From assembly GCA_043771175.1 (NCBI GenBank), contig JAYVHO010000006.1, positions 9,800-73,799 of the forward strand: DNA of 64,000 nt, given 5' to 3'. The position numbers and the translations under genes were made by a program. The stretch comes from a bacterium (GTDB taxonomy: Bacteria > Patescibacteriota > Minisyncoccia > Phycocordibacterales > UBA1006). Positions 1 to 50,616 of this stretch are shown here, one piece after another. Numbering within the stretch: position 1 is the stretch's first letter; every line of letters starts with the position of its first letter. The notes under the pieces are model-generated. The model worked only from the letters and a program-made list of their open reading frames with translations. It searched no databases and was not told where the DNA came from.

Positions 1-3000
1 TTTCTTGAGCATTCGTAAGTGTTTGGAAATCAACATTTTGTATTGTCCACACTGAGTCATTTGCCGTAACGTCACCATTAGTTCCATCATCGTACAGTGG
101 ATACACTCCTCCATTACTTACAGATTCATTAAAGTATGTTCCGTTATTATCGGTATCAATCATCAAAGAGAAGTTTGATGCATTTGCGATATTAAATTGT
201 GAATCATTTACATCAATTTGAAGCGTTACGTTTCCAATATCACTTGATGGTTGTTGTACTTGCCAGCGCTTTCCAAGAATTTGATATCCGGTTGGTGCTT
301 GTCCCGTTACAAAGCTTGCTGATCCACCATTATCTGCCATCGTCATAAATGACTTATCAGTTGGAATAGTTCCACTGGTAGTTGAAAGCGTAATAATACC
401 TGTGTCTGCTTGTGAGCGTGACTTTGATTTCACCTGTGAAAGACCAGAAGCATCATCACGTCCAATTCCAAAGATGTCGTTAACATACGTAGCTTCTGTT
501 ACCAAACTATCACTACTCCACATCTTGGTGGTTGAGTCAGATGCAATATAGTCAGTAGGTACCGTTTGATCCATTACCAGTCCATATTTAAGTGCCAAAT
601 ATGACTCAATACGTTGGTTAATATCACCACTTGTGTTGTCACCTGCATAAACAATGATTTCTCCCATTTTTTGATCTGAGTATGCAAATTGTCCTCCTCC
701 AAGTCGTGTGTAGGCGTTCGTTGACGTCATTGGTGAGGCAACTGGGTAGGTAATCATTACCTTATTATCACGAAGTAGAGAAACTTCATCTGGCCCAGTG
801 GTCTTGTTATACATGTGCCACATGTGAGTAGATGGGAAGGTGGTTCCAGCATTGCCGAAGTTTACTGATTGTGCAGAAGTTCCATAAATATAATGATTTG
901 CACCACCTTGTGAAATTCCTCGGATTCCAAAGTATCCAGAACCATTCATTCCTGTTTGGTTCAACATTTCATTGTTTTCACCACTGCTATCAGCAGCAGA
1001 TACCATATAGAGGTGCAGGTCATTATAGGTGTCCGCGTTCAAAATTCCTCCAATTGAAGCTGGAACATCCATGTATTCGTTATTACCACCTACAAAGTCT
1101 ACTGCAGCGTTAAAGTTAATCGCTTGTGAAGACGTTGCGTTTTGGTAATCAGGTATATTGGCTGCAACAAGAGTTTTGTTGTTTCCAGAAAGGTCAAGCC
1201 ATCGTACTGCCTGGTTGGTTCCTTGTACTGCTGGTACGGTTGCTCCAGTATCAGAATACACTCCCGTATCAGCCTTATACCATGCTTTCATTCCTGTTGA
1301 ATATCCTCCTGGTGCTGGTGGAATATTTTGTGCTACGGTGAAGTATTGACCAGATGCAAGCGTAAGATTATTAATCGTATACACTTTATCACCTGCTGTT
1401 TGGTCACCATTGGTTCCATCATCAAACATTGGGATTACCGTTCCACCTGTTTCATCAGTGAAGTTAGCCGTAGCTGCTGCTTCATCATCTACTACAAGGT
1501 AAAGGATTCCGTTTGCTGATGAGATGGTTGGAATATCAGAAATATTACTGCTGTTGGTATTTTCAGTATTTATTGCAAGGGTTACCGTTCCTACGGTTCC
1601 TGTTTTTTCAAACTTCCAGTTACGTGTAATAACTTGTTTGCCTGTTGGTGCACCGGTAGTTGTCCATACGCGTGCATCAGCACCATTGCTGGCAATTGAA
1701 GCTCCAGAAAGATCCGCACTAAAGGTACTTGGGGTTGAAAGATTATTTCCGTTTCCAAGTGTCCAAATAGCAGTTGCATTTACTGATCGTGATTTAAGTT
1801 GTGAAAGATCTGCCGCATCATCGCGCGCAATTGCGGTAATACTCTGTGAATATGCATTATTAAGTGCGGTATATACTTTTGATGTTCCGTTTGAAAGAAC
1901 GTAATCATTTGCAAGGTAATTAGCAGCAAAATAAATATCTTGTGTCGGTTGTGTTCCTACACTAGTTAATAATGTACCGCCAGAATAGGTACTCGTTGAC
2001 TGGAACCTATTATAGAACGATCCTGTTGTCTGGCCAAATACCATGGTATATGCGGATCCAGATGTAACATTAAATGGCGTAGTAAGTTGAACGGTATATA
2101 CCGTACTGGCTGTAGTTGGTGCAGTAAATGCTTGAGTATATACAGGCGATGCAATACACGTTCCTGATGTAGCAGATGCTCCATTACATAGGTATAACGT
2201 TCCAGGTCCACTATTTTGGGTACCAGAACTATTGGTCTGCAAGGTGATAGAGCCTATTTGACCAGTCGCACTTGCGGTGAACGTCTGCCCCCACCCAACG
2301 GTTTGACCCGAACCACCGTTAGAATCATTCTGTAGGTTTTGATCGATACCTTTGTTTAACGTAATACCATATTTAATTGCGAGGTATGATTCAATTTTTT
2401 GTTGAGATGTACCAGATGATTGATCAGCACCATAGTAGATTGCTTCTGCAATACCTCCGTTATACCATCCATTACTTACTCCAAGGTATGATACGCCGTT
2501 GTTACCAGTAACCGCAGAGCCAGATGCACTACTAGTGAGTTCTGCACCGTTGCGTGCAATAGACATTCTATTTCCACCGGTGGTTTTAACCTGAGTTTTC
2601 CAGATATATGGAGTTAATGTGTTTGTACCAGCGTTTGCGTTGGTTGAATCCAGTGTTGTTCCAGCACTATTGGTAAGACGTGTAGTGGTATTACTTACTC
2701 CCAATCGGAAATTAAGTGCCGTACCGGTGTTTGCATGATTATAGATATCTTCATTACCAGAAAGATCTAAATTATTCACTACCACATATGCATACACGTC
2801 GTTATAGGTATTGGTTCCAAGGACTCCTCCTCGTGCCCCTGGTACCTGCATGGCATAACCATCACCTGATGCATACATTACTGGGTTAAAGTTAATAGCG
2901 GTATTGGTAGTAGTTGAAGGATTTGCGGCGGTAGTGGTACGGTATGTTGGCGCAGTGCTGTACATTTGCATCCACTTGTCATTTCCTGACATATCGTTCC

Positions 3001-6000
3001 AACGGTTCATACTATTTCCATCAACTGCTGGTGTTGTTCCGTTTACATCACTATATACACCTTTGTTTGCCTTATACCACGCCATGATTCCGGTTGAAAC
3101 CGCACCTGGAGTTGGTAAGGTATTTTGTGCAAAGGTAAATTTATTAGTGTCGTCCAGTGCAACATTTGAAAGTGAATAGATTCTGTCGTTTGCGGTGGTA
3201 TCACCGTTGATTCCATCATCATTCATTGCCAAGATTCCAGTACCCAATACTTCATCCGTCAAAAGTCCATCTTCATTACTATCAAAGATAGTATAAAGGG
3301 TATTATTAAGTGCCGTAACATCAGGAAGGTTGCGTGATCCTGTTCCTTGAGTATTTTCAAGGTTTACCGCAATGGTGTAATTATTTGCTGCGGTTCCAAT
3401 TTCTCGTGCACGCCATTCAATTACAGAAGACGCAGTTCCTGGACGCATATATCCAGATGGAATAGTAGCGCTTGAAGTCCAGGTTGTTGCAGATCCATTA
3501 TTGTCTCCAATAATAAGTGCATCATTATTAGCAAGAGTAGCTTTACTGATTCTTACAATTCCTCCATTTCCAAGAGTTGAAGTATTAGCAGTTGAAAGTG
3601 ATGACAATTGTTCAAGAGCTGAGGCATTATCTTTCATAATACCCGTTACATAATTGTGATATGTATCATAGCTCCAAATAGTGGTTCCACTTCCGTTTAC
3701 AAGATCAGGTTTAATATCTACATCAAAGTACAAATCTTGTGTTCCAAATCCTGCTTGGTTACCACCAAGATATACATCAGAGCTTTGAATACGGAGGAAT
3801 ACATTTGTTGGTGCAGTAATAAGGAATGTGTACTGTGTTCCCGCGATTACTTCATATGGTGTCGTAAGCGGAATGGTAAAGTTAGTGTTAAGAGCCGTAG
3901 GTATAGTGGTAAGTACTTGTGAATAGTGAGTTGCACTGATAGGACTTGCAATACAGGTAGCCATTGCCACCGCTCCGGTACAAATATGAAGTGTTCCACC
4001 AGCTGCATTTGCAGTTGCTCCTGTTTGAAGAGTAATATTATTAATTCCTCCCGTTACTGACGCAGTAATTACTTGTCCCACATTTGTTGATGCCGTGTTG
4101 GTGGCATTAAGACTCAGTTGATCCTCTCCTCCAATATAGGTTGTTCCATATTTTAGTGACAAGTACGTATCAACCTTTTGACGTTGAACAGAAGTTAATT
4201 CCCATGGATACAAAATGTGTTCTCCAACACGTCCTGTCCAGTCAGCGGTATCATAATTACTACCGTTAATACGCAATTCTAATTGATCATTTGTTTGCAT
4301 CGAAATATTTGTTGTCAAATATGCGGTTCGCTTTCCATTACCCCAAATTGAGTTTGTATTTGTGGTAGTTGCAGCTGAATCACCTCCACTGTAACTTGCA
4401 CCCATAGTAAATGGAGTGTTAGCAGATTGTTGCTCAATCGTACCAGGTGTTACTTCCATGTTATTAATTTGGTGATCACGAACACGAATTTCTCCCGCAG
4501 CGTTTTCTGTACCGTATGGGTATCGCGCGGTTGGTGTTACGTCATCTCCATAGGTAAAGAGGAATTGAGTAGCTGTAGGCGTAGCTGCAGTTACCGCAGA
4601 ATACAGAGTACGCGCAGCGTTCATCATTGGAAGCCCCCATGTATAAATAGTACGTGTAGATTCAAGGCTTGAAGATACATTTGTTCCAACCAAGAACTTA
4701 TCAGAATTATTATTAATAATTGGATTACCGTTAACAAGGTTTACCGAATCATTCTCATAGGTGTTTCCTCCATCAGTACGTCCTGCAGCGTTTATAATCG
4801 GTGATACAGAATCCCATCGTATAATATGTGTTCCATCGGTGGTGGTTGCTGCAGCTCCTGTAGTATCAGTAAACATCTTTGTTCCTGCTTTATACCACGC
4901 CGTTTGTGGTGCATATACACGGAGCAAATTATTAGGAATATTTATACAAGACCCAGAACAAGTTGAGGCGTTGTTCTTCCAGGTGAGGTTAAAGTCTCCT
5001 GTTCCACCACGGTTTGACCATTTCACCCGCACGTTTTTCCATCCTGTTGATGTTGGGGTATATACTCCTTCACTGTTTGCTGTTGCAACACCCGTGATAA
5101 TTGGTTGATCATCAATCCACAAACTAAACATGTCATTAGTAGTTCCCGTATAATTGAATACTTTTTGAGTAGTATCCGTCATATTCATTTGTCCATATAC
5201 TTCCATTGATCCTTCCTCATTTGAAAGTCCAATATTACTAATACTAGCATCATCAATATTTGCAAAGTCACTGGTATACCACATCATGTGAGGTACAGAA
5301 TACGGTGAATCCTTACCGATTGAGTTTTCATTATCAGTAGCTGATGTGTTTCCACTTGGGAATTCGTTATATGCTTCAACACGAAGTCCAGGCATATAGT
5401 CAGCCACTACTCCTCCTGGTGCTGATTGATAGGTAGCAACTGTAAAGTATGCATTGGTACTGAAGTTTACTTGTCCAAAATCAAGGTACAAGGTAGACAC
5501 ATCTGCTGCAGTTTTAAATTGTGGAATTGCAGTAGCAATCGCTGTTGAACCACTGTCAAATACACCGTCAGCATCGGTCAAAAGGGTGTATGTTTGTCCA
5601 GGAATCAAATCTATAGCACGTGCAGAAGATCCACCTATACGTACATATGGGTTAGTGGTAATAGTTCCCGTAGTTTTGGTTTTCCAAGTTCGTCCAATAC
5701 GAAGGTTTACTGACCCATGAGTAATTGGAGTATCAAAGAATCTTGATCCGTTATCATTACCCCACACAAGCCATGTCTTGTTGGCATTCATTTGTGTACG
5801 AGTAGGATCATTATTAGCGATGAAAAAGTGATTATCAAGTGCCATGGTTACAATATCATCATCGTTTACACCATGTGCAATCTTTCGGTTTAACCCTCCA
5901 GCATCATCTCGTCCAATTCCCGCAACATCGTTGTGATATGAAACGGCAACACCTCCAACAATAGTTGCTTGTTCAGCACCCACACTGTCTCCGGTATCAT

Positions 6001-9000
6001 CACCATCAGTGTGCCCATTCCAAACTGATGTGGTTCCATCAGAAAGAATATAATCTCCTTCTCCAAATCCTCCAGCAAAAAGGTCGTTATCATTAGATCC
6101 CGCTGCACCGTTTCCAGATGGATCAACATTTGAAAGTGTCATTCCATATTTAAGTGCAAGATATGATTGAATCTTAGTTTGTTCAAGGTCGGTTTGTCCA
6201 GAATTGTTTCCAACATAGAATACCATTTCTGCAATTCGTCCTTGGAAATATTGTGTACCTTCAGCCGCACCAATTTCAAAATCATCAGATGTTCCAGAAA
6301 TTGCGGTAGTATCATTTACATTTTTTCCTATTTCATCAGTACTATTTGAAATCATTACCTTACCATTCTTACGGATAAACTTACCCGTAGCGTTAGTTGT
6401 TTGAGTACCATATGTACTTATATACGGTCGCTGAAGAACATTTCCTGAATCATAGTAATTCACATACATACAGCCTGAAGATGCTGCATTTGAACATGTG
6501 GCATTACCTGAGAATAGATATTCTCTACCCGACACAATAGAATCAGCTTGATACTTTTTCCCACCTGAAAGACCTTGATGGAAAAGGGTTGATGATACTG
6601 TTGAATTTGTTTGTGAGACGATATATGTATAGGTATCCAAATTATCTGCTCCAAATGATTCCGCATTTGAAATAAGTCCAATTGGTCCGTCGCCATCCAT
6701 ATCTTGTAGTCGGTCATTAGAACCATCAAACAAAAGTGTTGGGTTGTAGTTATATGCACCCGCTGATGCTCCTGTATAAAGGTCTGGATATGCCGAAACG
6801 GTGCTCATTCCCATATCAATCTGGTTTCCAGACTGATCTTTCCAGTAATTAACATCCAAGAGAGAGTTCGAATCGTTATCAGATACTGTTGTGACATCTT
6901 GATCTGCCGCATACCATGCTCGTAGATTTCCGGATACTCCTCCTGGTGCCGCTGGAGTAATTTGCGCAAAGGTAAATTCAGTTGCAGTTGCAAGGTTGAT
7001 CTGTATGTTATAAATACCATCACCATTGGTCGTATCTCCATTAGTTCCATCGTCGTACATTGGTGCAAGATCTGTTGCATCCAAAAGATCATTGTCATTA
7101 TTTTGGTCATACAAGAAGTAAAGCTTTCCATCAGTTCCATTTACTTCAGAAATATTTGAATCGGTGTCAGTAGTGTCTACTGAAAGGTTAAGTGTAGTTA
7201 CTCCGTCTCCATTTTCTTGATAGAACCATTCACGTTGCCCCGCTGAAGTACCAATTCTTTGATATCCAGATGGTGCTGCAGTGGTTGTCCAACCGGTAGT
7301 AAATCCACTGTTTTTGTTAGAAATTGATACAAATTCAAGATCTGCAAGGTCCGCAGGTACGTTTGCCGCAATGGTTACAATACCATTTATTGATTGTTGT
7401 TTTGACTTTGTGGTCAAAAGGTCTGATCCAGTGTCTTTTCCAAATCCAGCAATGTCTTGATTGTAGGTACCTGCTACCGTTGTATCCCACATTTTGGTGG
7501 TTCCGTTTGATGCAAGATAATCTGGTGATGTCATTGAATACGTAAAGAAGAGGTCTCCGGCAAACACTGAAGAAGCAAAGGTTGCCGTTCCACCAGCATA
7601 TGCATTAGTATTTTGAGCAATCAAGTTAATATTGGTTCCTGATGTAGTAGAAAGTACAAATGTATACAAACTTGCTGCAGTTATAGGGAATGCTGTATTA
7701 AGAGGAATAGTAAATACCGTTGAAACTGCTGTTGGGATATTGGTAACGGATTGAGAATATGCAGGTGCAGCGGCACATGCAGATGCAAGTACTGCTCCGG
7801 CACAGATTGAAAGTGTTCCTGTTGCACCATTGGCAGTTGTTATACCTGTTTTAAGGGTTATTTCATTAATATAACCAGTAGATGGTGCAGTAATTTGTTG
7901 ACCTTGATCTGCAGCAATGGTCATATTTACGTTATTTAAAATCTGAGCATCACCTGGTTGTAACCATGTGGTTCCATATTTAAATGCCATGTAACTTCTT
8001 ATCTTTTTCACCTCAGTCACTGATGGTTCAACGTTATATGACATTATTTCAGCAATATTTCCATCCCATGTTTCAGTGTTTTCTGATCCAATCTTAGTAG
8101 GCCCTGCACCAAAGGTGTTATTAAATCCAGCAAGTGTTTCACTGATACCGTTTACACTGGCAGTAACTCCAACACCAACACCTGGTGTATTCCACTTAAA
8201 TCCAAGCATAAATGGTGTATTTGCTGCTGGCATTGGAATTGATGATGTTCGATTACTTGCACTGTTGTCATACCAAACGGGATCTGTATCATAGATTCCA
8301 AACATTGGATCATTGGTGTTTCCAGCACCTTGTTCAAAGAGTGATGTCCACGTACCAGTAAGGTTTGGTTTAGTTACCATTGAGAATATCCGTCCGTTTG
8401 TAACATTGCTCAATATTGATGTTGACCCAGCAAGTTGCAAGTTATCATCTACTGCATCAAAAGTAAGTGATGGTTGGAAGTTAATGGCATTTGCAGATGT
8501 TGATCCTGCAAATATTGGTCGTTGCCCAACGGTTGATTGACTCATATTGTTACTATTTCCAGAAAGGTCATTCCACTGTCGTACTGATTGACCATTGGTT
8601 GTAAGTGTTGAACCAGTATCAGAATATACTTTACTTCCTGCATTCACCCAAAGGTTAAGTCCTGTTGAAACTCCTCCTGGTGCTGCCGGAGTTTTTTGCC
8701 CAAAGGTAAATACTTCTGTGTTAACCAGTGTTACGGTTTGTGCAGTCCATACATTATCATTTGCACTTGTATCACCATTGGTTCCATCGTCATACATAAC
8801 CACAGGTGTTTCATCGGCAAATCCGTTTCCAGTTGCAGTAATATCGCCGAGAAGATATAACTTTCCATCTGGTCCCGTAATATTTGGTAAATCCAAGTCG
8901 GTGTCATTAGTATCTACTTCAATTTTAACTGTTCCAGGAGTACTCGTAACTTGTGTCTTCCATGATCGATTAAGTCGTTGATATCCAGTAGCAGTACCAA

Positions 9001-12000: not shown

Positions 12001-15000
12001 CAGAAATATCATCACGCACCAATCCTGCAACGTTATAATGGAACGCCGCATCAGCACCTGCGATTCCTCCGGTTAATGATCCATCCCATACGGTGGTGGT
12101 TCCATCAGAAAGAATATACTTTCCTTCATCAATGGAAGAAAGGGTATCTACATTTGAAAGTGTCTTTCCGTATTTAAGCGCCATGTATGATTCAATACGT
12201 TGTGTTTCTGCAGCAGTTTGTATAGATCCTTGCGCATAGGTAATTACTTCTCCAATGCGTCCAGTCATTGATGAAGTATTACTTGCAGTAGCACCAAGTA
12301 CCATTTGTGTCCCTGTTCCAGCAAATGACACCTGTGTTGCATCGAGTGAGTTCGTAAATACACGTCCATCTTTTTTAACACGTTGTCCAATAGTTCCATC
12401 ACCATCATTAGTAGTTGATCCAACTTCTGATGTTAAGTAATAAGTGTGATCGCTCATTCCAATATTCGCAGCAGAAACAATTACTTCATTGGTTGTTGCA
12501 TCTCCAAGACGTGAATAGTAGTTTGGTCCTGTTTGAAGAGCAATGGTTGCAAATCCGTCAGCAGAAAGAGTCGTATTTTCTGAAAGCAACCAGTCATTGG
12601 TTCCTTGTTCATCTGACATGTAGAAGAAGTACTTTGATGAGTTGGTATATGTTGTTCCTGTTCCCAAAATTCCGTTTGCATCGTAAAGGTTGTCTGATTC
12701 TGCAGCACAGGTATTATTACCAAATACAAAGTTAGTACTGGCGTTTACTCCACAAAATTGGAGTGTTTGTTGGTAGTTAGCATTAGCGTCAACTATCAAT
12801 CTTGGAATTCCTCCAGAAAGACCATCTGAGAAGTTATTTCCGTTTCCTGATTGATCTTTAATTAAAGCAACATCAGTTCCTGCAGTTGCAGCAGTGGTTC
12901 CAAGTGTGTCGGTATATACATCCTTGTCTGCACGTAGCCACAATTTAAGACCTGAAGCCACTCCTCCTGGAGCTTGTGCGTTATTTGGAAGTGCAATAGT
13001 AAAATAATCACCGTTTGCAAATGCAACACCAGAGAATGTTATAACAGTTCCAGAAACAGTTGGTGTGATTGGTGATATCGTGGCACCCGCTGCAAAGTTT
13101 GCATCAGCATCTATCAAAAGTCGAACTTGTGACATATCAGTTGCTCCAGCGTTGTGTGCAGCAAGATCAAGTGAAACATTCACCGTTCCAACATCTCCTA
13201 TTTTTTGAACTTGCCATTCACGGACAATTCGCCCATTCGTATACACAGGAAGACCAGCTGCCGGAAGTTCAGAATTTTGAACGCCAACTGCAGCACTGTC
13301 ACCTCCTACTGACAAGAATTCCATATCAGCAACCGTAGTGCTGTTTTGGTTTACTACTTCAATAATTGGTGAACCGGTCACAGATTGTGATGTTGTTTTA
13401 TATTTCAAAAGTCCAGAAACATCATCACGTCCAACTCCAGCAATACCAAGATTATGAGTTGAAGCACCTGATAGATCCTTATTCCACATCATTGTTGACC
13501 CATTAGATGCAAAGTATGTTGGAGAATTCGTTGTGTATTCAAAATATAAATCATTAGGTGACAATGATCCCGCTGCATTAAATGCAGTATTTCCTGTTCC
13601 TGGATAAATATCAGTTGAATTAGAGCGAAGTGCTACTGTCTTTCCAGCAGCCGTTGTATCTCCAAGAACCAAAGCATATGAAGTCCCAGCAGCAACAGTG
13701 TATGGTGTTGTTATAGAAATAGTAAATTTAGTACTTACAGGAACAACGCTGAGTAGTCCTGAAAGCCCAGCACCATACGTTACGGTTCCAACCGCTTGTG
13801 AATATGCAGGTGAAGCAATACATGCCGCAACATTTGTTGCATTTGGGTTTGAAACGATAGCACCAGTACAAATATAGAGATTAAGGTTTGATGAGTTGGC
13901 AGTCGCAGAACGTGTCATAAAACTCACATTAGTAATTGCAGCATTGGTTTTTGCCGTAAATACTTGTCCTACTGAGGTGCTTACCAGCGCATCTTGATTA
14001 TTAGTAAGTTGCAATTCTCCTCCCACTTGAGTAATTCCGTATTTAAATGCCAAATATGAGTTAATTTTATTTATTTCCGCTGCTGTATGTTGAGAGTTAT
14101 AAAATACCATTTCACCAACAGCACCATCAAAATTTTGTTCGCTGGTTGTATATGAACCAAAGTTCATCGCTGCAGTACTTGGTGTAATCGGACTATATGA
14201 AGCATTTTGTGCAACAGTTTTTCCATTTTGTTGAATTTGTTGTCCAATAAATGATCCTGTTGAATAATCAGCAGTATTGTAAAGATATGGTTGACCAAGC
14301 ACTGTACCAAGTGTCGTGTGTGGTACTGAAACAGTTGTACCGGAATCATGATATAACGTTGTGTTACTTAACGAAAGAATGAAATTTGTTCCTTGTCCTC
14401 CCCAAAGCCCTGAGTGAGAAACAGTACCTTGTGTTTCTTGTGAGGCAACGTTATATGTTTCCCAGTTTGAAAGTGTTGTTCCTGTTGGAAGCAAGTTAGT
14501 TGCAGTAGTTGTAAGTATATCGTTTTCTGCATCTTCAAAATCTACAACTGGGTTATAGTTAATCGCAAGTGTATTGGTTGCAGAGCGGAATTCTGGATTT
14601 GCTTGTTGTGTAGTCAAGTTGAACCCATTTCCTGATTGGTCTTTCCAAGAAGCCATAGAAGCTCCATCAGTTGCAACGGTAGTGTTTGCAGTTGTTGTAA
14701 ATGTCCCTGCGTCAGCCTTATACCATGCACGAAGTCCAGATGTTACTCCTCCTGGTGCGGTTCGAGGTAATACCATAGTAAAGTATTGTCCATCAACCAA
14801 TGACACACCAGTAAAACTTACACTGTTGTCAGTTGAATTATAAGTAGGTTCTCCTGAGGTTGGATATACCGTTTGTGTTCCACTGGCAAAGTTTCCATTA
14901 TCATCAACAACTAATCTAAATCCAGAAACATTTGCAGGAGAAATATTCATTGCATCCAAATCAAAAGTAAGCTTAAATGTTCCCATTGCAGGATCAACCG

Positions 15001-18000
15001 TAACTACATTGTTTACAATTGCATTTTTTTGGACTCTCCATTCACGCGATGTACGAGAGTTGGTAGCTGTTGGGATTCCGGTAGCTGGCATATCAGTTAC
15101 AACAATAGTTGCAGCTGGTGCGTTGGTTGATCCAACAAACATAAATTCTTTATCGTCAAGAAGTCCGGTGCTTTCTGCTTCTGTGGTAAGGAAAGAAACA
15201 GCTTCACCTTCTGCTTTTGATTTTGTATTGGTCAAAAGGAGTGCATTGTCTTTTGCAATTGCATGAACGTTATATACATAGTCATCACTTGCGGTTGTTG
15301 CAATATTTGCATCAACTACGTTTGATGTATTTGCGCTGATGTCAATTCCTTCTGAAGCATCAAACACAACTTGATTTCCTGATGAAACGTAATCACGTCC
15401 TCCGGTGCGGTATCCATCAACTGAAAAGTCCATATCAGTAGCGGCTGCAACCGTATCTTGGTTGATCATGGTTCCATTTGCGTAGTGGTTATTAGTAGTA
15501 TCACTATTAAGCACTAATGTTCCGCTTGCAGGTTTAACATGAATTACATAAGTGGTTCCAGCAGTTACCGCAAATCCAGCGTCAAATTGAACAGTAGCCG
15601 TAGTGTTAATTGATGGATTAGTTGGAAGGGTTGCTACTTTGTTTGTTTTTCCAACTCCAGGGTTTCCTGCAGTACATGTTGTAGCAGTTGCTGAAACTGA
15701 TGCATCACATAAATATACAGTTGCAGATGGTGCAGAGTTAGACGTTGATACTGTAAAACTTACTGAATTTACCGTTCCAGAATAATCAGCGGTAAAGGTT
15801 TGTCCAATAGAACCGGTATTTGTAGCTGATGTAGTAGTGTTATTGTATGCGTTACTTGCAAAGTTGGTTCCTTGCTGAGCAAGGGTAATACCATACTTAA
15901 TTGCCAAATATGATTCAATTCGTTCTCGATTTGATTGTGAAAGTTGCTCTTTATACACAATCATTTCTGAAATTGAACCAAGCCAAGTATCATTATTACC
16001 TCCAATATGAAAATTACTGGTGTTCATACTGGTCATATCCCACACGGTAGAAACAGAATTGAATCCGTTGGTTCGCATATTTACCGTTGAATCTGTTCCA
16101 CCATTCCAGTCCCATGACTGAAGCATTCCAGCACCCGGAACCATCATTGGATATCCATAGGTAGGGTTTGGAGTAGAAACATTTGAAAACATTGCAGGAC
16201 GTTCTGCTAATGTTCCAAGTATAAGAGTATCATTTCCAAGCTCTACAGCACTATCCCAACTAGATGTCGATGTGTCGTGTTTTCCAACAACAAAGAGTGA
16301 TCCAGCAGAAGTTGCGGTTGGAAATATTGTATTAGTACGATACAAAAGATCATCTCCGTCAAAATCAAGAGTTGGATGATAATTAACCGCTTCAGAAGTA
16401 GTTGCATCACGATATAGAGGTCTACTTGATAACGTAGGGTGTTGTACTGTATTTTCTAAAATTGAAGCATCTTTCCATGTATATACTGCTGATCCATTGG
16501 TTGTAGGTGTGGTTCCTCCGGCATCGGTATAGGTGTCTTTATCAGCTCTCCACCATCCAACAAGATTAGCATCAGGTACTTCAACAGGGTTATCGTTTGC
16601 AATTCCCCATGTTCGTCCTTCATTAAACACTTCAATTCCATCTGTATTAACAAAAGAAAGCCCTCCGATGGTGTAATACATTGGCGAAACATCTGGTGCA
16701 TCATAGGTGTATGAAATCGTAAGAATATCACCCGCTTGTGCAGCAACATCTTTAACGGTGATTACCTTTCCGTTATTTTCTGTTGAAATTTCTGTTGAAA
16801 GTGTTGTATCGTCAGCACTTACCTCTTCGGTGCCTGAGAAAATATTTTCAATAACATTTTGAATTTGCTCAATTACGGTTGGTGCTTCTACTGTTTCTGG
16901 TGCAACTTCAGGAAAAGTAACTTCACTACTAGCCACAGGAGCTTCTACGGTTGCAGGGGCAACTTCAGTTGAAGAAGTTGTTTCGGTAGTTACAGATGGA
17001 GCTTCAGGTGTAATAACTACGGTTTCTCCAGCTGGGATTTGTTCAATAATTGCAGGAAGGGTAACTTCTGGTGCTGTAGTTTCTGCAGGTGCTACCACTT
17101 CAGGAGTAGATGCACGAGAAATTACTGCAGTAACACCTTCTATGTCAAAATCAGCAGGTGCAAGCTCCTTAATAGAACCCGTAAAGTCTTCTCCAAAACG
17201 TACTGTCACGCTTGCTGGTGACTTACCGATAGGATACAGACGTGTTGCAATGATTCTTTCAATGGTTGCTTTTGCAGATTCTGCAACTACTACGGTTTTG
17301 GTAAGAGTTTTTGCTCCGCTTCCGTTATCAGTGGTAAGGTTAAAAATATAGGTACCTGATTGTCCAAAAATATAGTCATAGGTATAATCTGCAACCGTAT
17401 TGTTTGAGTCAAAGGTTACACATTTACCAGTATCAATAGGAGTAACGGTTTCAGTTGTTCCTGCAGGTGTAGTGATTGAAAGCGAATTAGTTGCTTCGCA
17501 CACTGGTGCTCCTGCATCATCAAGTACACCAATTGATATATTTCCCGTTTCACCTACCGTATAGGTATTTTGATCAAGGTTCATTGAAAGAACTCCCCAG
17601 GTAAAATCTTGTGAAAATGTTTCAACTTCGCCGGTAATAGGATTTAAAATTGATCCAGCAATGGTATAGGTACCAGGTGCTGCATCGCGAAGTGGAAACG
17701 CCATAATTACAGAACCTACTTCAAATGAAATATCTTCTGCTGGAATGGTGATGATTTGAGGTGCAGTAGTTGGTGCAACTGGTGCAGTTTCTCCATCTAC
17801 AGCTTCTGGAGCAACTTCTTTTTGAGTTGCTGTAAGGGTAATAAATTTACCAATGTCATTTGAGTCATTGATAAGGTCATCTGCTATTGCATTTACCTTT
17901 GCGGTATCGGTGCCAATGTCAGAGTAATCAGAAGGGTCAACTTCTGTGTTAGTGTTTAAAATATTTCCAATAGCACCAGAAATTCCAGAATTAGCTTCTG

Positions 18001-18694
18001 GGTTTGGGGTATTGATTTCTTTCTTGGTGGTAGTGATTCCAAGAATGGTTGCAAATGCTTCGGTGTCAGAAAGCTTGTCACCTTCATTTTTACCAACGAA
18101 GTCAAAATCTGCGATTTTTATTTTGATTTGGTTATCAGCAATTACTGATACTGGTTGTGGATTGATTACTGAATCAAGAATTGATACATCAGTGTTTTCT
18201 GGTGTAACTTCTGGCACAACAGGTGTGTCAGTTGGTGGTGTTGTAGGTGTAGTGGTGTCAGCAGGGACATTGGCGGGAATATCCAATGGTGGCGCATTCG
18301 GTTCTGAACCCGTGACCGACTGGTCTGCAGAAGTTTCTGTTACAGGATTAGTGGCAGGAACTACAACTTCTGAAGAAGAAGTATTGTCCGCAGGTGTTGC
18401 GTCAGGAGTGGTTGCAACCGCAGCAGGAGCCTCAGCAGATGGAACAGTCTCTATTGTTTGTGGTGCAGCATTTAATGTTGCATCTTGTCCGTTATCAACT
18501 GAAGAGGTGTCTGCAGATGGAGCAGCAGCTTCTTGTGCGTAAACTTCGACAACGGGTAAAAAAGAAGTAACCAAAAAACTTACCGCAAGTACGGTAGAAA
18601 GTACCTTGGTTAAGGTAGACGCAGAAGTAGTGGTAGTCTTTTTACCACGGATACTTTTGGTACTTGATTGAAAAACTTTAAAGAATGAATTCAT
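1..18694 (-). CDS. Giant secreted cell-surface protein (N-terminal >6,200 aa; 3' end beyond window): signal peptide, T/P/A/E-rich stalk, >=8 tandem modules with LamG/ConA-like lectin jelly-roll signature
   Basis: Hand translation of the minus strand from ATG at 18694..18692 gives MNSFFKVFQSSTKSIRGKKTTTTSASTLTKVLSTVLAVSFLVTSFLPVVEVYAQEAAAP... (N-terminal TM/signal, AQE cleavage-like site). An in-frame TAA lies 9 codons upstream of this ATG. Spot-checks of the frame (lines at 1, 5101, 9001, 12601) show no tta/cta/tca triplets in the codon phase. Recurrent module signature: ...TFAQKTPAAPGGVSTGL(K/R)AWYKAD.GVYSD... W.DQSGNGN... L.FDG.DD.L ... G.IAE.I.Y...LS..E..KIESYLA.KYG.TL, at least 8 times. 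The ORF track omits it because no stop codon falls in the window. Confidence 0.85.
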   Translation of the reverse strand, partial: MNSFFKVFQSSTKSIRGKKTTTTSASTLTKVLSTVLAVSFLVTSFLPVVEVYAQEAAAPSADTSSVDNGQDATLNAAPQTIETVPSAEAPAAVATTPDATPADNTSSSEVVVPATNPVTETSADQSVTGSEPNAPPLDIPANVPADTTTPTTPPTDTPVVPEVTPENTDVSILDSVINPQPVSVIADNQIKIKIADFDFVGKNEGDKLSDTEAFATILGITTTKKEINTPNPEANSGISGAIGNILNTNTEVDPSDYSDIGTDTAKVNAIADDLINDSNDIGKFITLTATQKEVAPEAVDGETAPVAPTTAPQIITIPAEDISFEVGSVIMAFPLRDAAPGTYTIAGSILNPITGEVETFSQDFTWGVLSMNLDQNTYTVGETGNISIGVLDDAGAPVCEATNSLSITTPAGTTETVTPIDTGKCVTFDSNNTVADYTYDYIFGQSGTYIFNLTTDNGSGAKTLTKTVVVAESAKATIERIIATRLYPIGKSPASVTVRFGEDFTGSIKELAPADFDIEGVTAVISRASTPEVVAPAETTAPEVTLPAIIEQIPAGETVVITPEAPSVTTETTSSTEVAPATVEAPVASSEVTFPEVAPETVEAPTVIEQIQNVIENIFSGTEEVSADDTTLSTEISTENNGKVITVKDVAAQAGDILTISYTYDAPDVSPMYYTIGGLSFVNTDGIEVFNEGRTWGIANDNPVEVPDANLVGWWRADKDTYTDAGGTTPTTNGSAVYTWKDASILENTVQHPTLSSRPLYRDATTSEAVNYHPTLDFDGDDLLYRTNTIFPTATSAGSLFVVGKHDTSTSSWDSAVELGNDTLILGTLAERPAMFSNVSTPNPTYGYPMMVPGAGMLQSWDWNGGTDSTVNMRTNGFNSVSTVWDMTSMNTSNFHIGGNNDTWLGSISEMIVYKEQLSQSNRERIESYLAIKYGITLAQQGTNFASNAYNNTTTSATNTGSIGQTFTADYSGTVNSVSFTVSTSNSAPSATVYLCDASVSATATTCTAGNPGVGKTNKVATLPTNPSINTTATVQFDAGFAVTAGTTYVIHVKPASGTLVLNSDTTNNHYANGTMINQDTVAAATDMDFSVDGYRTGGRDYVSSGNQVVFDASEGIDISANTSNVVDANIATTASDDYVYNVHAIAKDNALLLTNTKSKAEGEAVSFLTTEAESTGLLDDKEFMFVGSTNAPAATIVVTDMPATGIPTATNSRTSREWRVQKNAIVNNVVTVDPAMGTFKLTFDLDAMNISPANVSGFRLVVDDNGNFASGTQTVYPTSGEPTYNSTDNSVSFTGVSLVDGQYFTMVLPRTAPGGVTSGLRAWYKADAGTFTTTANTTVATDGASMASWKDQSGNGFNLTTQQANPEFRSATNTLAINYNPVVDFEDAENDILTTTATNLLPTGTTLSNWETYNVASQETQGTVSHSGLWGGQGTNFILSLSNTTLYHDSGTTVSVPHTTLGTVLGQPYLYNTADYSTGSFIGQQIQQNGKTVAQNASYSPITPSTAAMNFGSYTTSEQNFDGAVGEMVFYNSQHTAAEINKINSYLAFKYGITQVGGELQLTNNQDALVSTSVGQVFTAKTNAAITNVSFMTRSATANSSNLNLYICTGAIVSNPNATNVAACIASPAYSQAVGTVTYGAGLSGLLSVVPVSTKFTISITTPYTVAAGTSYALVLGDTTAAGKTVALRSNSTDIYPGTGNTAFNAAGSLSPNDLYFEYTTNSPTYFASNGSTMMWNKDLSGASTHNLGIAGVGRDDVSGLLKYKTTSQSVTGSPIIEVVNQNSTTVADMEFLSVGGDSAAVGVQNSELPAAGLPVYTNGRIVREWQVQKIGDVGTVNVSLDLAAHNAGATDMSQVRLLIDADANFAAGATISPITPTVSGTVITFSGVAFANGDYFTIALPNNAQAPGGVASGLKLWLRADKDVYTDTLGTTAATAGTDVALIKDQSGNGNNFSDGLSGGIPRLIVDANANYQQTLQFCGVNASTNFVFGNNTCAAESDNLYDANGILGTGTTYTNSSKYFFYMSDEQGTNDWLLSENTTLSADGFATIALQTGPNYYSRLGDATTNEVIVSAANIGMSDHTYYLTSEVGSTTNDGDGTIGQRVKKDGRVFTNSLDATQVSFAGTGTQMVLGATASNTSSMTGRIGEVITYAQGSIQTAAETQRIESYMALKYGKTLSNVDTLSSIDEGKYILSDGTTTVWDGSLTGGIAGADAAFHYNVAGLVRDDISALDQRIARSINNDNTMSIALDNNFTAANSDTVARPTQLATNKQAIMWGHNGGTQYFDTAVTTTNTNTRMNRVWKVKMTGLASRAVNIQFSNPSVMRLKNGQQYVILESATANMASPTELATATAVASGTTSLVTFAGVTLTTAKFYSLATKMIAPGGVTSKVINGVRSQIYIDNTWSDSFVSPTNWYANDALALENVGTGTSFAAPIMTSYADHIQGTNLGSVANGQWDDNYAEEFNGYIVIPTTGTGYTFTLDAGSATGNVDDAAQLWVDINADGLLDDTERIINIGSVSTATSASLTLTTPSAGLMRFRLRHKENATTDSIGISWTKTGTGAFARTALDSDDFRVEAPLAMWFKADAGAYDDYWTTKADPAVDNDKVNTWENSALVPNNDLVDAVTFVDGTGANYNSATGASGINFNPSLNVTSASLGIFTNARNTNATNGNQDANDYFGWTNGLAYMGGANTSFVVGMDPTVTASSEMFYSYGYDNGAGATNTSTTTFGRELTSGQLEIGQSSSNTANSYTGVIQSNVPFMFTGTTAAVTNPVGAVDSTVQTTYGYGLQRGTGTNTQRLHLGVSTRLYEVGDYADFGGHNFNGNISEIIHYPAQLSGTERYKVESYLAMKYGTTLLPFDRANGIETVVEGDYLSSTGAVVWDGNDTSVAATSFTGGHTKALNTENTQMSDVRFNTVTTAGCPSLGSCMYTSGTTTSGKVYQYTLSTPYVVSTAVYASKQFTVNAEVATPTALAFSNDGTKMYVAGAVGVVYQYTLTTAFDVSTAQTYAASGSKSLTIPSTTSVGMTFNNDGTKIFVLQGGNDFVYQFNLATAYDISTGVNSGITFDASNQDSNTNGLAFDATGTRMYIVGYTNDFVHQYVLTTAFDISTAIQVARFAVGTQDGQMAGIAFNPSGSIMVLVGNLSTTAVYDYDIPLVSIGVNALYSNEVTAIAQDNASGLLQLKSKSQMKNGMITIGTPSSLGDGDFLIVGNNGQDASTFISTGAYDGLGTATGYQRLNRSWKTQVTSTPGTVKIEVDTNDTDLDLPNITGPDGKLYLLGDITATGNGFADETPVVMYDDGTNGDTSANDNVWTAQTVTLVNTEVFTFGQKTPAAPGGVSTGLNLWVNAGSKVYSDTGSTLTTNGQSVRQWNDLSGNSNNMSQSTVGQRPIFAGSTSANAINFQPSLTFDAVDDNLQLAGSTSILSNVTNGRIFSMVTKPNLTGTWTSLFEQGAGNTNDPMFGIYDTDPVWYDNSASNRTSSIPMPAANTPFMLGFKWNTPGVGVGVTASVNGISETLAGFNNTFGAGPTKIGSENTETWDGNIAEIMSYNVEPSVTEVKKIRSYMAFKYGTTWLQPGDAQILNNVNMTIAADQGQQITAPSTGYINEITLKTGITTANGATGTLSICAGAVLASACAAAPAYSQSVTNIPTAVSTVFTIPLNTAFPITAASLYTFVLSTTSGTNINLIAQNTNAYAGGTATFASSVFAGDLFFTYSMTSPDYLASNGTTKMWDTTVAGTYNQDIAGFGKDTGSDLLTTKSKQQSINGIVTIAANVPADLADLEFVSISNKNSGFTTGWTTTAAPSGYQRIGTSAGQREWFYQENGDGVTTLNLSVDTTDTDSNISEVNGTDGKLYFLYDQNNDNDLLDATDLAPMYDDGTNGDTTNGDGIYNIQINLATATEFTFAQITPAAPGGVSGNLRAWYAADQDVTTVSDNDSNSLLDVNYWKDQSGNQIDMGMSTVSAYPDLYTGASAGAYNYNPTLLFDGSNDRLQDMDGDGPIGLISNAESFGADNLDTYTYIVSQTNSTVSSTLFHQGLSGGKKYQADSIVSGREYLFSGNATCSNAASSGCMYVNYYDSGNVLQRPYISTYGTQTTNATGKFIRKNGKVMISNSTDEIGKNVNDTTAISGTSDDFEIGAAEGTQYFQGRIAEMVFYVGNNSGQTDLEQTKIQSYLALKYGMTLSNVDPSGNGAAGSNDNDLFAGGFGEGDYILSDGTTSVWNGHTDGDDTGDSVGAEQATIVGGVAVSYHNDVAGIGRDDAGGLNRKIAHGVNDDDIVTMALDNHFFIANNDPTRTQMNANKTWLVWGNDNGSRFFDTPITHGSVNLRIGRTWKTKTTGTITTNPYVRIGGSSARAIDLIPGQTYTLLTDADGVFDSGSTAIATAIPQFKTAADVSTLYLDFGQVNFSTNAYFTVATYQSAPGGVVADYMPGLRVEAYNEFPSGNTSATDNENSIGKDSPYSVPHMMWYTSDFANIDDASISNIGLSNEEGSMEVYGQMNMTDTTQKVFNYTGTTNDMFSLWIDDQPIITGVATANSEGVYTPTSTGWKNVRVKWSNRGGTGDFNLTWKNNASTCSGSCINIPNNLLRVYAPQTAWYKAGTKMFTDTTGAAATTTDGTHIIRWDSVSPIINAAGRTDGGNTYENDSVNLVNGNPIINNNSDKFLVGTNVSSSLESTRTIYTWGLPMMNAARTLYSAVTAATPTATQFLFTYGDDVTPTARYPYGTENAAGEIRVRDHQINNMEVTPGTIEQQSANTPFTMGASYSGGDSAATTTNTNSIWGNGKRTAYLTTNISMQTNDQLELRINGSNYDTADWTGRVGEHILYPWELTSVQRQKVDTYLSLKYGTTYIGGEDQLSLNATNTASTNVGQVITASVTGGINNITLQTGATANAAGGTLHICTGAVAMATCIASPISATHYSQVLTTIPTALNTNFTIPLTTPYEVIAGTQYTFLITAPTNVFLRIQSSDVYLGGNQAGFGTQDLYFDVDIKPDLVNGSGTTIWSYDTYHNYVTGIMKDNASALEQLSSLSTANTSTLGNGGIVRISKATLANNDALIIGDNNGSATTWTSSATIPSGYMRPGTASSVIEWRAREIGTAANNYTIAVNLENTQGTGSRNLPDVTALNNTLYTIFDSNEDGLLTDEVLGTGILAMNDDGINGDTTANDRIYSLSNVALDDTNKFTFAQNTLPTPGAVSTGIMAWYKANKGVYSDVNGTTPAVDGNSMNRWNDMSGNDKWMQMYSTAPTYRTTTAANPSTTTNTAINFNPVMYASGDGYAMQVPGARGGVLGTNTYNDVYAYVVVNNLDLSGNEDIYNHANTGTALNFRLGVSNTTTRLTNSAGTTLDSTNANAGTNTLTPYIWKTQVKTTGGNRMSIARNGAELTSSASGSAVTGNNGVSYLGVSNGWYNGGIAEAIYYGADQSSGTSQQKIESYLAIKYGITLNKGIDQNLQNDSNGGSGQTVGWGQTFTASATGQIGSITLQTNSSGTQNSGPGTLYLCNGASATSGTCIASPVYTQAFTAPTTASTVYTVQLTTPFNVTSGSAYTMVFGQTTGSFYNRFQSTSTYSGGTLLTSVGTQPTQDIYFAANYLANDYVLSNGTSKVYTALNNAYSQSITAIARDDAADLSQLKSRSVNATAIWTLGNGNNLSTPSTFSADLSGASIASNGADARVWTTTGAPTGKQVITRNWKFEKTGTVGTVTLAINTENTNSSNISDIPTISSANGILYLVVDDEAAATANFTDETGGTVIPMFDDGTNGDQTAGDKVYTINNLTLASGQYFTVAQNIPPAPGGYSTGMKAWYKADTGVYSDTGATVPAVQGTNQAVRWLDLSGNNKTLVAANIPDYQNATSSQAINFNAAVDFVGGNNEYMDVPASIGGILNADTYNDLHLYMVSAADSSGENNEMLNQTGMNGSGYFGIRGISQGGANHYIYGTSAQSVNFGNAGTTFPSTHMWHMYNKTTGPDEVSLLRDNKVMITYPVASPMTSTNAYTRLGGGQFAYSDQKMGEIIVYAGDNTSGDINQRIESYLALKYGLVMDQTVPTDYIASDSTTKMWSSDSLVTEATYVNDIFGIGRDDASGLSQVKSKSRSQADTGIITLSTTSGTIPTDKSFMTMADNGGSASFVTGQAPTGYQILGKRWQVQQPSSDIGNVTLQIDVNDSQFNIANASNFSLMIDTDNNGTYFNESVSNGGVYPLYDDGTNGDVTANDSVWTIQNVDFQTLTNAQE

Positions 18695-19090
18695 AATAAT
18701 GTTGTTTTATAAAGTGATTTATAAATAGTTTAATAAATAATTACATCTACAACGATGTGCATATATTGTAACATTTTGAATACAATCTATTCATATAAAA
18801 TTCATAAATCACCATGTTGATAAGTGATATTTTTCAAATGATTTGCATTTTAAATTTTCTCTTTTATTACTCATTTGCATAAAATTTTTTAACAACATCT
18901 TGTCCGTTAGAAATAATTTATTTATCAGATTAACCGCTCTAACTAATTCTTTTTTGAAAAGCTTCATCCTAATTAGTTTTTGTTATCACCATGTTTTTGA
19001 ATACAAATTAATCACAATATACCAAGCTGGAACAAAACACTTTTATAGACAGTGCATAGGCGAGATTCATAAAAAATGCAGCTGACAAGC
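18695..19090 (-). promoter_or_regulatory. AT-rich upstream region of giant gene (probable promoter/5' leader)
   Basis: ~400 bp of very AT-rich non-coding sequence immediately 5' of the giant ORF start. No convincing ORF; the 18843..19085 '+' ORF is low-complexity AT-rich. Confidence 0.35.
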
Positions 19091-19191
19091 TAAGCATTTT
19101 TTATACTAATCGAGTCCGAGCCTAGGGCGGTAGACCCGCTGTCCATGAAAGTGTTTTGAGAAAGCGCAGGCTTAATTACGCATCAACATTT

Positions 19192-19219
19192 AAAAACACC
19201 ACATTGCTGTGGTGTTTTT
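19192..19219. terminator. Bidirectional rho-independent terminator hairpin
   Basis: AAAAACACCACA-ttgc-TGTGGTGTTTTT: perfect 12-bp stem flanked by an A-run and a T-run, just downstream of the 19267 minus-strand gene. Confidence 0.7.
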
Positions 19220-19266
19220 AAAAATCTGGATCCAGTTATATAACAGGATGACAGTCAATTATAATT

Positions 19267-27232: not shown

Positions 27233-27802
27233 ATGAACACAGAAAAAGCCTCTTCAGATGACTCATTCATGAGATTTATCTTTATTATTATGTTGGTGGC
27301 ACTACCACTTCGAATCTTTGTTTTTTGGCCGTTTGTCGTAAGTGGAGAATCAATGGTACCAACTTTTGAGGACAAACAATATCTTATCGTTGACAAGATA
27401 AGCTACAAACTTCATGACGTACAACGTGGTGATGTAGTGGTGTTTAAATATCCCAAAGATCCAACTCGCTATTTTATTAAACGTATCATTGGGCTTCCAA
27501 CAGAATCAGTTCTTGTTAAAAATGGCATAGTAACTATTTCATCAGCTGACAAAACCACCATAGCAACACTGTCAGAACCATATATTTCTGATACGACTAC
27601 CGGAACCACGGAACTTTCTTTAGGAGAAGATGAATATTTTGTAATGGGAGACAATCGTCCACAGAGTTCTGACTCTCGTGTATGGGGACCAGTAGAGAAA
27701 AATCTTATCATTGGAAAAACACTGTTTCGACTGTTGCCACTCAGTAGAGCTTCAGTATTTCCTGGTAAAACCATTTATCAAGATACAGAGCCAACCAATT
27801 AG
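27233..27802 (+). CDS. lepB: Signal peptidase I
   Basis: ...FVVSGESMVPTFEDKQYLIVDKISYK...RGDVVVFKYP...YFIKRIIGLPTESV...FVMGDNRPQSSDSRVWGPV... (S26 boxes B-E, catalytic Ser in SM and Lys in VKR). Confidence 0.9.
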   Translation: MNTEKASSDDSFMRFIFIIMLVALPLRIFVFWPFVVSGESMVPTFEDKQYLIVDKISYKLHDVQRGDVVVFKYPKDPTRYFIKRIIGLPTESVLVKNGIVTISSADKTTIATLSEPYISDTTTGTTELSLGEDEYFVMGDNRPQSSDSRVWGPVEKNLIIGKTLFRLLPLSRASVFPGKTIYQDTEPTN

Positions 27803-50458: not shown

Positions 50459-50531
50459 ATAATTTGTGAGTATTACGAATATGTCATAAGTATATCACTA
50501 TAAAAAAACACCCTCGAAAGGATATTTTTTG

Positions 50532-50616
50532 TGCCCAAGAGAGGACTTGAACCTCCATGCCCGTTACAGGCGTTACCACCTCAAGGTAGTGCGTCTACCA
50601 GTTTCGCCACCTGGGC
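50532..50616 (-). tRNA. tRNA-Leu (anticodon GAG), long variable arm
   Basis: Minus-strand GCCCAGGTGGCGAAACTGGTAGACGCACTACCTTGAGGTGGTAACGCCTGTAACGGGCATGGAGGTTCAAGTCCTCTCTTGGGCA. Anticodon loop TTGAGGT. Class II variable arm. CCA not encoded. Confidence 0.8.

Follow-up and report, generated by a model that had tools for sequence, protein, structure and literature searches.

The giant open reading frame

The 64,000-nucleotide stretch of contig JAYVHO010000006.1 analysed here (hereafter the window) carries a giant gene, which runs off the left edge of the window and whose product is the subject of this study. The original prediction described it as a single minus-strand frame that starts with the ATG at position 18694, codes for more than 6,200 amino acids (aa) and is still incomplete at the edge. 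When the frame was translated from 18694 to 2, we obtained 6,231 codons and no in-frame stop, which confirms this description: the giant open reading frame (ORF; 2..18694, minus strand) is complete at its 5' end, and its 3' end lies past the window edge. A stop would be expected in 7.3% of codons at the base composition of the window, and the probability of 6,231 stop-free codons by chance is about 1e-205. The start is well defined, since an in-frame stop occurs five codons upstream of the ATG. The gene had indeed been left off the ORF list on which the prediction was based, because the list includes no ORF that is cut by an end of the window.

The G+C content at third codon positions was 0.241 in the giant gene and 0.247 in 15 other genes of the window, and the synonymous codon preferences were the same. 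The gene is thus native to this genome, and it is real; recent horizontal acquisition is ruled out by the same agreement with its neighbours. The overall G+C content of the giant-gene region was higher (0.40 versus 0.34), but the excess came entirely from codon position 2, because the protein is rich in Thr, Ala, Gly and Ser (13.5% Thr). In composition the protein is Thr/Ser/Gly/Ala/Asn-rich, with very little Cys (0.3%). At the DNA level, repeats within the gene were confined to short motif-coding stretches with 60-84% identity, which indicates that the repeated modules described below arose by duplication long ago and have since diverged, and that they are no artefact of assembly. In the 570-bp upstream region (18695-19266) no evident Shine-Dalgarno sequence preceded the ATG, and promoter-like sites were no commoner than in shuffled sequence (4 found, 4.2 expected). 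A GTG-initiated ORF of 198 aa (17946-18542, plus strand) lies antisense inside the Thr/Pro/Ala/Glu (T/P/A/E)-rich part of the gene and is almost certainly spurious.

The N-terminus (aa 1-53; 18536..18694; this and all further features of the giant protein are on the minus strand) consists of a Lys/Arg-rich n-region and the hydrophobic segment aa 28-53, the only strongly hydrophobic segment of the protein (19-aa windows at aa 28-35), which is followed by VYA/QE. The latter fits the -3/-1 rule for signal peptidase I, by which the cleavage site was placed. In sequence terms the region fits a Sec signal peptide with a signal peptidase I site, or alternatively an uncleaved signal-anchor. The predicted signal peptide agrees with the hydrophobic segment and the putative site, and the protein is probably Sec-exported; a signal peptidase I gene is located within the window at 27233-27802. 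The signal had been proposed to precede an extended T/P/A/E-rich stalk of about 600 aa. T/P/A/E-rich linkers were found in the first 700 aa (aa 67-174, 282-325 and 518-611), but they do not form one continuous stalk and instead alternate with folded regions. The first low-complexity linker (aa ~55-180; 18155..18532) was delimited by windows with at least 60% T/P/A/E at aa 67-174, and the second long one (aa 518-611; 16862..17143) by composition windows. Between them lies an N-terminal folded region (aa 273-523; 17126..17878), which in BLASTP was 42% identical over 272 aa to P0188, one of the relatives discussed below, and within which aa 381-474 gave a weak Ig-like BIg21/PKD match (BIg21 E = 8e-4, sub-threshold).

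Modules and their domains

The remainder of the 6,231 aa carries nine diverged modules of about 600-700 aa, the last of which is cut by the window edge. Repeated modules of about 650 aa had been predicted together with several motifs, and a pattern search recovered both. The motif xSYLAxKYG occurred nine times (aa 927, 1545, 2168, 2848, 3566, 4176, 4842, 5435 and 6030), at a spacing of 593-718 aa. By strict pattern, W.D.SGN was found five times, G.I.E.I in eight of the nine modules and the Cys motif L(Y/S/H)(L/I)C.GA four times, with a fifth variant of the latter, VYLCDAS, at aa 993. Three kinds of unit could be distinguished. Unit A (~250 aa), present in all modules, starts with (A/T)PGG(V) and ends with G.I.E.I.Y...ESYLAxKYG. 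Unit B (~140-155 aa) is present in five modules and contains a Cys pair, LYxCxGA...C.A.P.YSQ. Unit C (~190-235 aa) is again common to all modules and carries the motifs GIGRDD...L.Q.KSKS and RxW(k/r)(v/t)(q/e); in five modules it closes with a (Y/F/N)DDG(T/I)NGD...(W/Y)(T/S/N) segment. Conservation is confined to the module edges (PGGV...W and the G.I.E.I.Y...ESYLAxKYG framework), and the cores are 21-36% identical.

The module coordinates were derived from a profile of 431 positions which was itself built partly from these same units. Module 1 (aa 702-1317; 14744..16591) consists of a LamG-like A unit, a B unit and a DUF8202 C unit, matches profile positions 1-431 and has its KYG motif at aa 927. 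Module 2 (aa 1313-1912; 12959..14758) has the same A, B and C order by profile match, whereas module 3 (aa 1908-2389; 11528..12973), defined by motif, alignment and profile, consists of A and C without B. An insert (aa 2385-2585; 10940..11542) separates it from module 4 (aa 2577-3342; 8669..10966), whose A and C units (profile matches at aa 2577-2900 and 3142-3342) are split by a second insert (aa 2890-3160; 9215..10027). Module 5 (aa 3338-3920; 6935..8683), supported by NCBIfam, motif and profile matches, contains A, B and a C unit with the choice-of-anchor X segment described below. By motif and profile, module 6 (aa 3916-4429; 5408..6949) has A and C without B, and is followed by a third insert (aa 4425-4592; 4919..5422). 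The A, B and C units with choice-of-anchor X recur in module 7 (aa 4592-5199; 3098..4921; motif and profile) and in module 8 (aa 5195-5798; 1301..3112), which was used for structure prediction. Module 9 (aa 5794-6231; 2..1315), recognised by alignment and by a match to positions 1-421 of the 431 in the profile, has A and C with choice-of-anchor X. The ninth C domain is all but complete where the window edge cuts the chain, and the protein thus continues past the window.

Direct Pfam searches with pieces of 3,000 aa gave essentially nothing, and shorter pieces gave mostly sub-threshold matches only. The match to Laminin_G_3 that had been expected of the protein stayed below the Pfam threshold: the best one (PF13385, model positions 3-151 of 151) was found in the A unit of module 2 with 20.3 bits against a threshold of 27.6 (E = 6.6e-4), and the other eight A units had no match when searched directly. 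When the nine A units were aligned with eleven homologous ones, four of the 20 members matched Laminin_G_3 (best E = 7.9e-9), and the relative P0188 carries precomputed Laminin_G_3 and Pentaxin matches. Moreover, the A unit of module 8 was modelled by AlphaFold2 with a mean predicted local distance difference test score (pLDDT) of 83.8 and a predicted template modelling score (pTM) of 0.87. In a Foldseek comparison with the PDB this model had 219 matches at E ≤ 1e-3 (lectin domains at E about 1e-7), and the top 50 were all ConA-like domains, with template modelling scores of about 0.5-0.6 and 9-16% identity to the solved lectins, a divergence too great for the module cores to be aligned to these with confidence. 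The top matches included a cyanophage tailspike, the lectin domain of trypanosomal (trans-)sialidase, a pentraxin, domain 4 of the arabinanase AbnA, the Hc-N jelly-roll of botulinum and tetanus toxins and of NTNH, and the lectin module of the Streptococcus sanguinis minor pilin PilC. On the basis of the model, unit A is a ConA/LamG-type jelly-roll at the level of fold and superfamily. The prediction of LamG/ConA modules thus stood at fold level, but the more specific combination of a LamG-like unit with DUF8202 and choice-of-anchor X had gone unrecognised. Searching PDB sequences was less productive: the A-unit profile retrieved only chance-level LolA matches (E about 0.1), and single-module, propeller-like and PA14-like segments retrieved nothing useful.

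For the other units the evidence comes mainly from homology. PF26628 (DUF8202) is annotated in every one of the 13 homologues of module 8 (best E = 4e-32), and the first half of the C domain is matched by a 121-aa gene whose sole annotation is DUF8202 (GIGRDD...KSRS...RTWRVQE). Unit C thus corresponds to DUF8202 by its homology to PF26628-annotated proteins. The choice-of-anchor X model (NCBIfam NF041940) matched five stretches with 98.8 bits against a cutoff of 25 (E = 1e-28); these are the YDDGTNGD...(W/Y)T segments at aa 3301, 3880, 5158, 5757 and 6201. Unit B weakly resembles DUF4082 (PF13313) and would be a Cys-containing beta-sandwich: two of the five B domains matched, with 23.2 and 19.3 bits at best against a threshold of 28.4 (the B domain of module 1 with E = 7.5e-5, sub-threshold), and the other three had no match to this family.

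Of the inserts, aa 2385-2585 would be a GEVED/PA14-GLEYA-like beta domain, given a marginal GEVED match (PF20009, 24.5 bits against 24.4, E = 5e-5) and a weak GLEYA/PA14-type co-match (GLEYA E = 5.6e-3). The region at aa 4425-4592, which had no Pfam match, is tentatively called a second PA14-like region from its position and its resemblance to the first. The insert in module 4 (aa 2890-3160) contains four or five repeats of about 50 aa, seen also as a DNA repeat family (D5) with a spacing of 153-162 nt, and is described as beta-propeller-like in view of a sub-threshold match to SGL, the SMP-30/gluconolactonase-like propeller (23.6 bits against 26.3, E = 4.4e-5).

Related proteins and gene context

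An exhaustive search of 1.84 billion cluster representatives with a profile built from whole modules yielded 67,462 proteins at E ≤ 1e-3, the weakest of which probably include generic LamG proteins, 34,443 at E ≤ 1e-10 and 6,620 at E ≤ 1e-30. The top 150 matches contained 3-11 modules in 1.4-6.8 thousand aa, and the only one carrying an organism name was from Chryseobacterium. Bacteroidota versions mostly end in sorting domains of the type IX secretion system (T9SS), and genome loci with T9SS tails agree with this. Judged by these sequences, the LamG-DUF8202 family is very large, with Bacteroidota T9SS cargo as its predominant part; no member has been functionally characterised. Giant adhesin-like proteins of the LamG/ConA fold had originally been regarded as hallmarks of episymbiotic bacteria of the Candidate Phyla Radiation (CPR). 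For the module found here this view could not be sustained, since LamG-DUF8202 is not CPR-specific and the family is mostly Bacteroidota T9SS cargo; the choice-of-anchor X motif alone occurs across many phyla. The family members were only 27-33% identical over whole modules, none of them close, and a search with the last module revealed no close relative among GTDB species representatives and JGI metagenomes.

A few relatives appear to be of CPR type. These are P0223 and P0284 from locus L001 (JGI Ga0558126_00510, 1-29767; contig positions 160919-192429), P0188 from locus L081 (ENA ERZ25072490 ctg192994, 10001-30305) and a 2,755-aa protein of a Ca. Saccharibacteria metagenome-assembled genome (L007; CAZMGK010000015.1, 3009-11276); we infer the CPR origin of L001 and L081 from architecture and gene context. 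L081 contains three consecutive LamG-DUF8202 genes (3,434, 989 and at least 3,571 aa), the first of which shares the N-terminal domain of the window protein and the last of which runs to the contig end; they lie beside TsaD, MiaB-like and SpoIID genes. In L001, seven consecutive same-strand genes, nearly all with DUF8202, encode products of 2,794, 121, 996, 59, 126, 685 and 6,588 aa. Because the break between P0223 and P0284 (the 2,794-aa and 6,588-aa products) falls inside the conserved SYLAxKYG motif, the seven may together represent a single gene of about 11,000 aa that has been frameshifted. Two of these proteins carry PG_binding_1 at their C-termini (P0284 with 49.1 bits, L007 with 27.8 bits, cutoff 23).

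The remainder of the window encodes histidyl-tRNA synthetase, a short prolyl-tRNA synthetase, photolyase, HtrA, a major facilitator superfamily transporter, a VirD4/TraD-like protein, peptide deformylase, a formyltransferase, L19 and eight tRNAs. The CPR origin of the window, as originally assigned, is supported by the prolyl-tRNA synthetase: its relatives are all at most 67% identical, and every named one belongs to Minisyncoccia, Paceibacterota/Pacebacteria or Patescibacteria. This enzyme (43043-44305, minus strand) has only 420 aa, and the bacterial model matched it in two separated stretches, so that it lacks the editing insertion. The giant gene is adjoined by small membrane proteins without family matches and by an AhpC/TSA peroxiredoxin.

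No sign of a dedicated secretion, sortase or diversity-generating retroelement system was found among the window genes scanned. The idea that the giant protein is a diversified target of such a retroelement was rejected, as no reverse transcriptase or other component of this system was present among the window ORFs scanned, the smaller of which were scanned partly. Several other genes deserve mention in their own right. A 912-aa protein (38284-41022, minus strand) matched VirD4/TraD-type coupling proteins only weakly (E = 5e-11 to 1e-8, well short of the family cutoffs) and may belong to machinery for type IV secretion or DNA uptake. In a 955-aa ORF (60021-62888, minus strand) a Peptidase_C39 domain at the N-terminus is joined to a long coiled coil that is SMC/Rad50-like, which is an unusual pairing, and a 795-aa ORF (47666-50053, minus strand) had no Pfam or NCBIfam match. 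At 50531-50616 (minus strand) ARAGORN placed an 86-nt tRNA to which it assigned no identity and an 'anticodon' of two bases (tg), and which the Rfam tRNA model supports with 44.9 bits; it may be a tRNA with a long variable arm or otherwise atypical.

Possible function and comparison with known systems

We consider it probable that this genuine Patescibacteria gene encodes a giant Sec-exported cell-surface protein which acts as a multivalent adhesin fibre binding glycans or surfaces; the adhesin role is what we infer from the architecture. The N-terminal signal or signal-anchor and the flexible Thr/Pro/Ala/Glu-rich spacers are followed by at least nine tandem, strongly diverged modules, each pairing a ConA/LamG-type lectin jelly-roll with a DUF8202 beta-sandwich, and with CBM (carbohydrate-binding module)-like, PA14/GEVED-like and propeller-like domains interspersed. 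Such a long fibre could bind glycans or other envelope components multivalently and would thereby fasten the small cell to polysaccharide or to the envelope of another cell, be it partner or host. Different or additive binding specificities could come from the sequence diversity of the modules; the conserved edge framework around divergent cores suggests such diversification. By analogy with the CPR-type relatives, C-terminal PG_binding_1 domains may anchor the protein and would then tie the fibre to the cell's own wall. A surface role is suggested by the family as a whole, since its members carry either T9SS sorting signals (Bacteroidota) or PG_binding_1 wall-binding signals (CPR-type). Moreover, ConA-like lectins and giant surface proteins have been proposed as attachment factors of Patescibacteria (PMC12911398, PMC8080830, PMC11809585), and these proposals make the originally suggested host attachment plausible.

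Several observations weigh against an adhesin. The C-terminus, where any anchor, enzyme or toxin domain would be located, lies beyond the window edge. The direct LamG, DUF4082 and propeller Pfam matches on the window protein are all sub-threshold, and the AlphaFold model of units B and C was of moderate confidence (pLDDT 72, pTM 0.58) and had no Foldseek match in the PDB at E ≤ 1e-3. In the literature searched, no paper mentions DUF8202. None of the neighbouring genes ties the giant protein to a specific pathway. Finally, a role specific to episymbiosis is not implied, because the family is found mainly in free-living Bacteroidota.

Other explanations must be considered. That the long frame is a mis-assembled repeat or a dead gene is the only one of them that is effectively excluded. 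It could be invoked to explain why the giant protein is absent from a collection of 5.8 billion protein sequences in which the products of its neighbours are present on a 124,588-bp contig, and why the related loci L001 and L081 are split into several consecutive genes. Against this stand the stop-free length of the frame and its native codon usage; in addition, the modules are too diverged (21-36% identical as proteins, 60-84% in short DNA motifs) for collapsed repeats to have produced the assembly, and every module matches the family profile strongly and over its full length. The protein could instead form a structural coat or fibril, that is, a protective or spacing layer similar to an S-layer or a fibrous glycocalyx, in which the lectin-like folds are self-assembly or wall-binding units and not receptors for a partner cell. 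The Thr/Ser/Gly/Ala/Asn-rich, Cys-poor composition with long spacers would suit such a coat, the giant proteins of Vampirococcus have been linked to its fibrous cell surface (PMC8080830), and the CPR-type relatives would bind their own peptidoglycan through the predicted PG_binding_1 domain. However, strong divergence among nine modules that keep their frameworks conserved is more suggestive of diversified binding units than of a repetitive scaffold, and accessory PA14/GEVED-like and CBM-like domains are typical of ligand binding. We therefore regard a coat as rather unlikely.

A role in polysaccharide scavenging, in which the lectin/CBM-like modules tether environmental or host polysaccharide for degradation by a C-terminal catalytic domain beyond the window, or in which the ConA-like units are themselves glucanases, appears improbable. 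No catalytic family was detected by Pfam and NCBIfam scans in the 6,231 aa, the invariant residues belong to framework strands and the terminal helix and not to a GH16-type ExDxxE motif, and the full-length relatives L007 and P0284 contain beta-helix-like repeats, Calx-beta and PG_binding_1 only, without a hydrolase domain. These findings outweigh the facts that the ConA-like superfamily includes glucanases, that the structural neighbours include CBM-bearing glycoside hydrolases and esterases, and that T9SS cargo, to which the Bacteroidota relatives belong, is a class rich in glycan-degrading enzymes. We give still less credence to a contact-dependent effector or toxin carrier, whose receptor-binding part would be the lectin array of a giant polymorphic toxin and whose toxic or lytic domain would lie C-terminally beyond the window. 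The A-unit fold does match phage tailspikes and the receptor-binding Hc-N domains of clostridial neurotoxins, and the C-terminus is indeed beyond the window edge; but with 9-16% identity these matches reflect the generic ConA-like fold, and those CPR-type relatives whose C-termini are complete carry wall-binding domains there, and no toxins.

Returning to the adhesin fibre, one could go further and speculate that a CPR lineage took up the Bacteroidota-typical LamG-DUF8202 module, re-anchored it by Sec export and peptidoglycan binding, and expanded it to at least nine copies as a combinatorial host-recognition array in which each module reads a different surface glycan. We consider this elaboration unlikely, though not implausible; if true, the gene would be a main determinant of the hosts to which this episymbiont can attach. 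Giant surface proteins are the leading candidates for the means by which ultra-small CPR bacteria recognise their partner cells and hold on to them, a process that is still poorly understood. The giant gene links one such candidate to a defined and very large uncharacterised family (LamG, DUF8202 and choice-of-anchor X), common to Bacteroidota and to CPR-type relatives that use a different anchoring solution. The single domains, of about 250 aa (lectin-like) and 200 aa (DUF8202), are tractable units for glycan-binding tests.

The Bacteroidota LamG-DUF8202 proteins, for example Chryseobacterium profundimaris WP_430393688.1 (3,927 aa) and many metagenomic proteins of 1.4-6.8 thousand aa, share with the window protein the PGGV linker, the LamG-like unit ending in ESYLAxKYG and the DUF8202 unit with GIGRDD...KSKS...RxWkV, and their module is likewise repeated, 2-11 times, at the 27-33% identity over whole modules given above. 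They differ in that they end in Por_Secre_tail or type-B T9SS domains, neither of which was found in the 6,231 aa present here, and in that the B sandwich and the choice-of-anchor X segment with YDDGTNGD are mostly absent from them. To our knowledge, T9SS secretion is not expected in CPR bacteria. With at least nine modules and at least 6,231 aa, the window protein is near the top of the size range of the family, and it is an unusually large but not unprecedented member. The CPR-type relatives are closer in architecture: their LamG-DUF8202 modules have the YDDGTNGD choice-of-anchor X ending, P0284 likewise has the B-type Cys sandwich, and P0188 has the same signal-anchor, an acidic or low-complexity spacer and the N-terminal domain. 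These loci would be giant too, with about 11 and at least 8 thousand aa if the split genes are each one gene. However, the proteins are only 30-47% identical to the window protein, none at the level of an orthologue, and L007 and P0284 have one to three modules followed by beta-helix-like repeats, Calx-beta and the C-terminal PG_binding_1, whereas the window protein has at least nine modules. In L007 and P0284 the PG_binding_1 domain sits where the Bacteroidota relatives have T9SS tails; as far as the sequences can tell, the anchor has clearly been swapped while the LamG-DUF8202 module is shared.

Giant LamG-containing surface proteins are also known from the Nanohaloarchaeota (DPANN), ultra-small obligate symbionts whose SPEARE proteins are defined by protease, adhesion and restriction-endonuclease domains. 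These proteins are archaeal, whereas the window protein is bacterial, and neither the SPEARE-type serine protease nor the restriction-endonuclease domain was found by Pfam and NCBIfam in the 6,231 aa available. Among Patescibacteria, exoproteins of more than 5,000 aa with FhaB domains in Patescibacterium danicum (PMC11809585) and membrane proteins of up to 4,163 aa in Vampirococcus lugosii (PMC8080830) have been proposed to serve in host attachment. Like the window protein, these are predicted surface proteins of more than 4-5 thousand aa in reduced CPR genomes, without full-length homologues. Their domains are different (FhaB/DUF2341 and WD40/TPR/PKD versus LamG-DUF8202), and no FhaB or haemagglutination repeat domain was detected by Pfam or NCBIfam in any segment of the 6,231 aa. 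The giant gene is thus not a new kind of system and implies no new mechanism: a giant surface protein is what would be expected of a CPR bacterium, and loci of comparable or larger size exist elsewhere.

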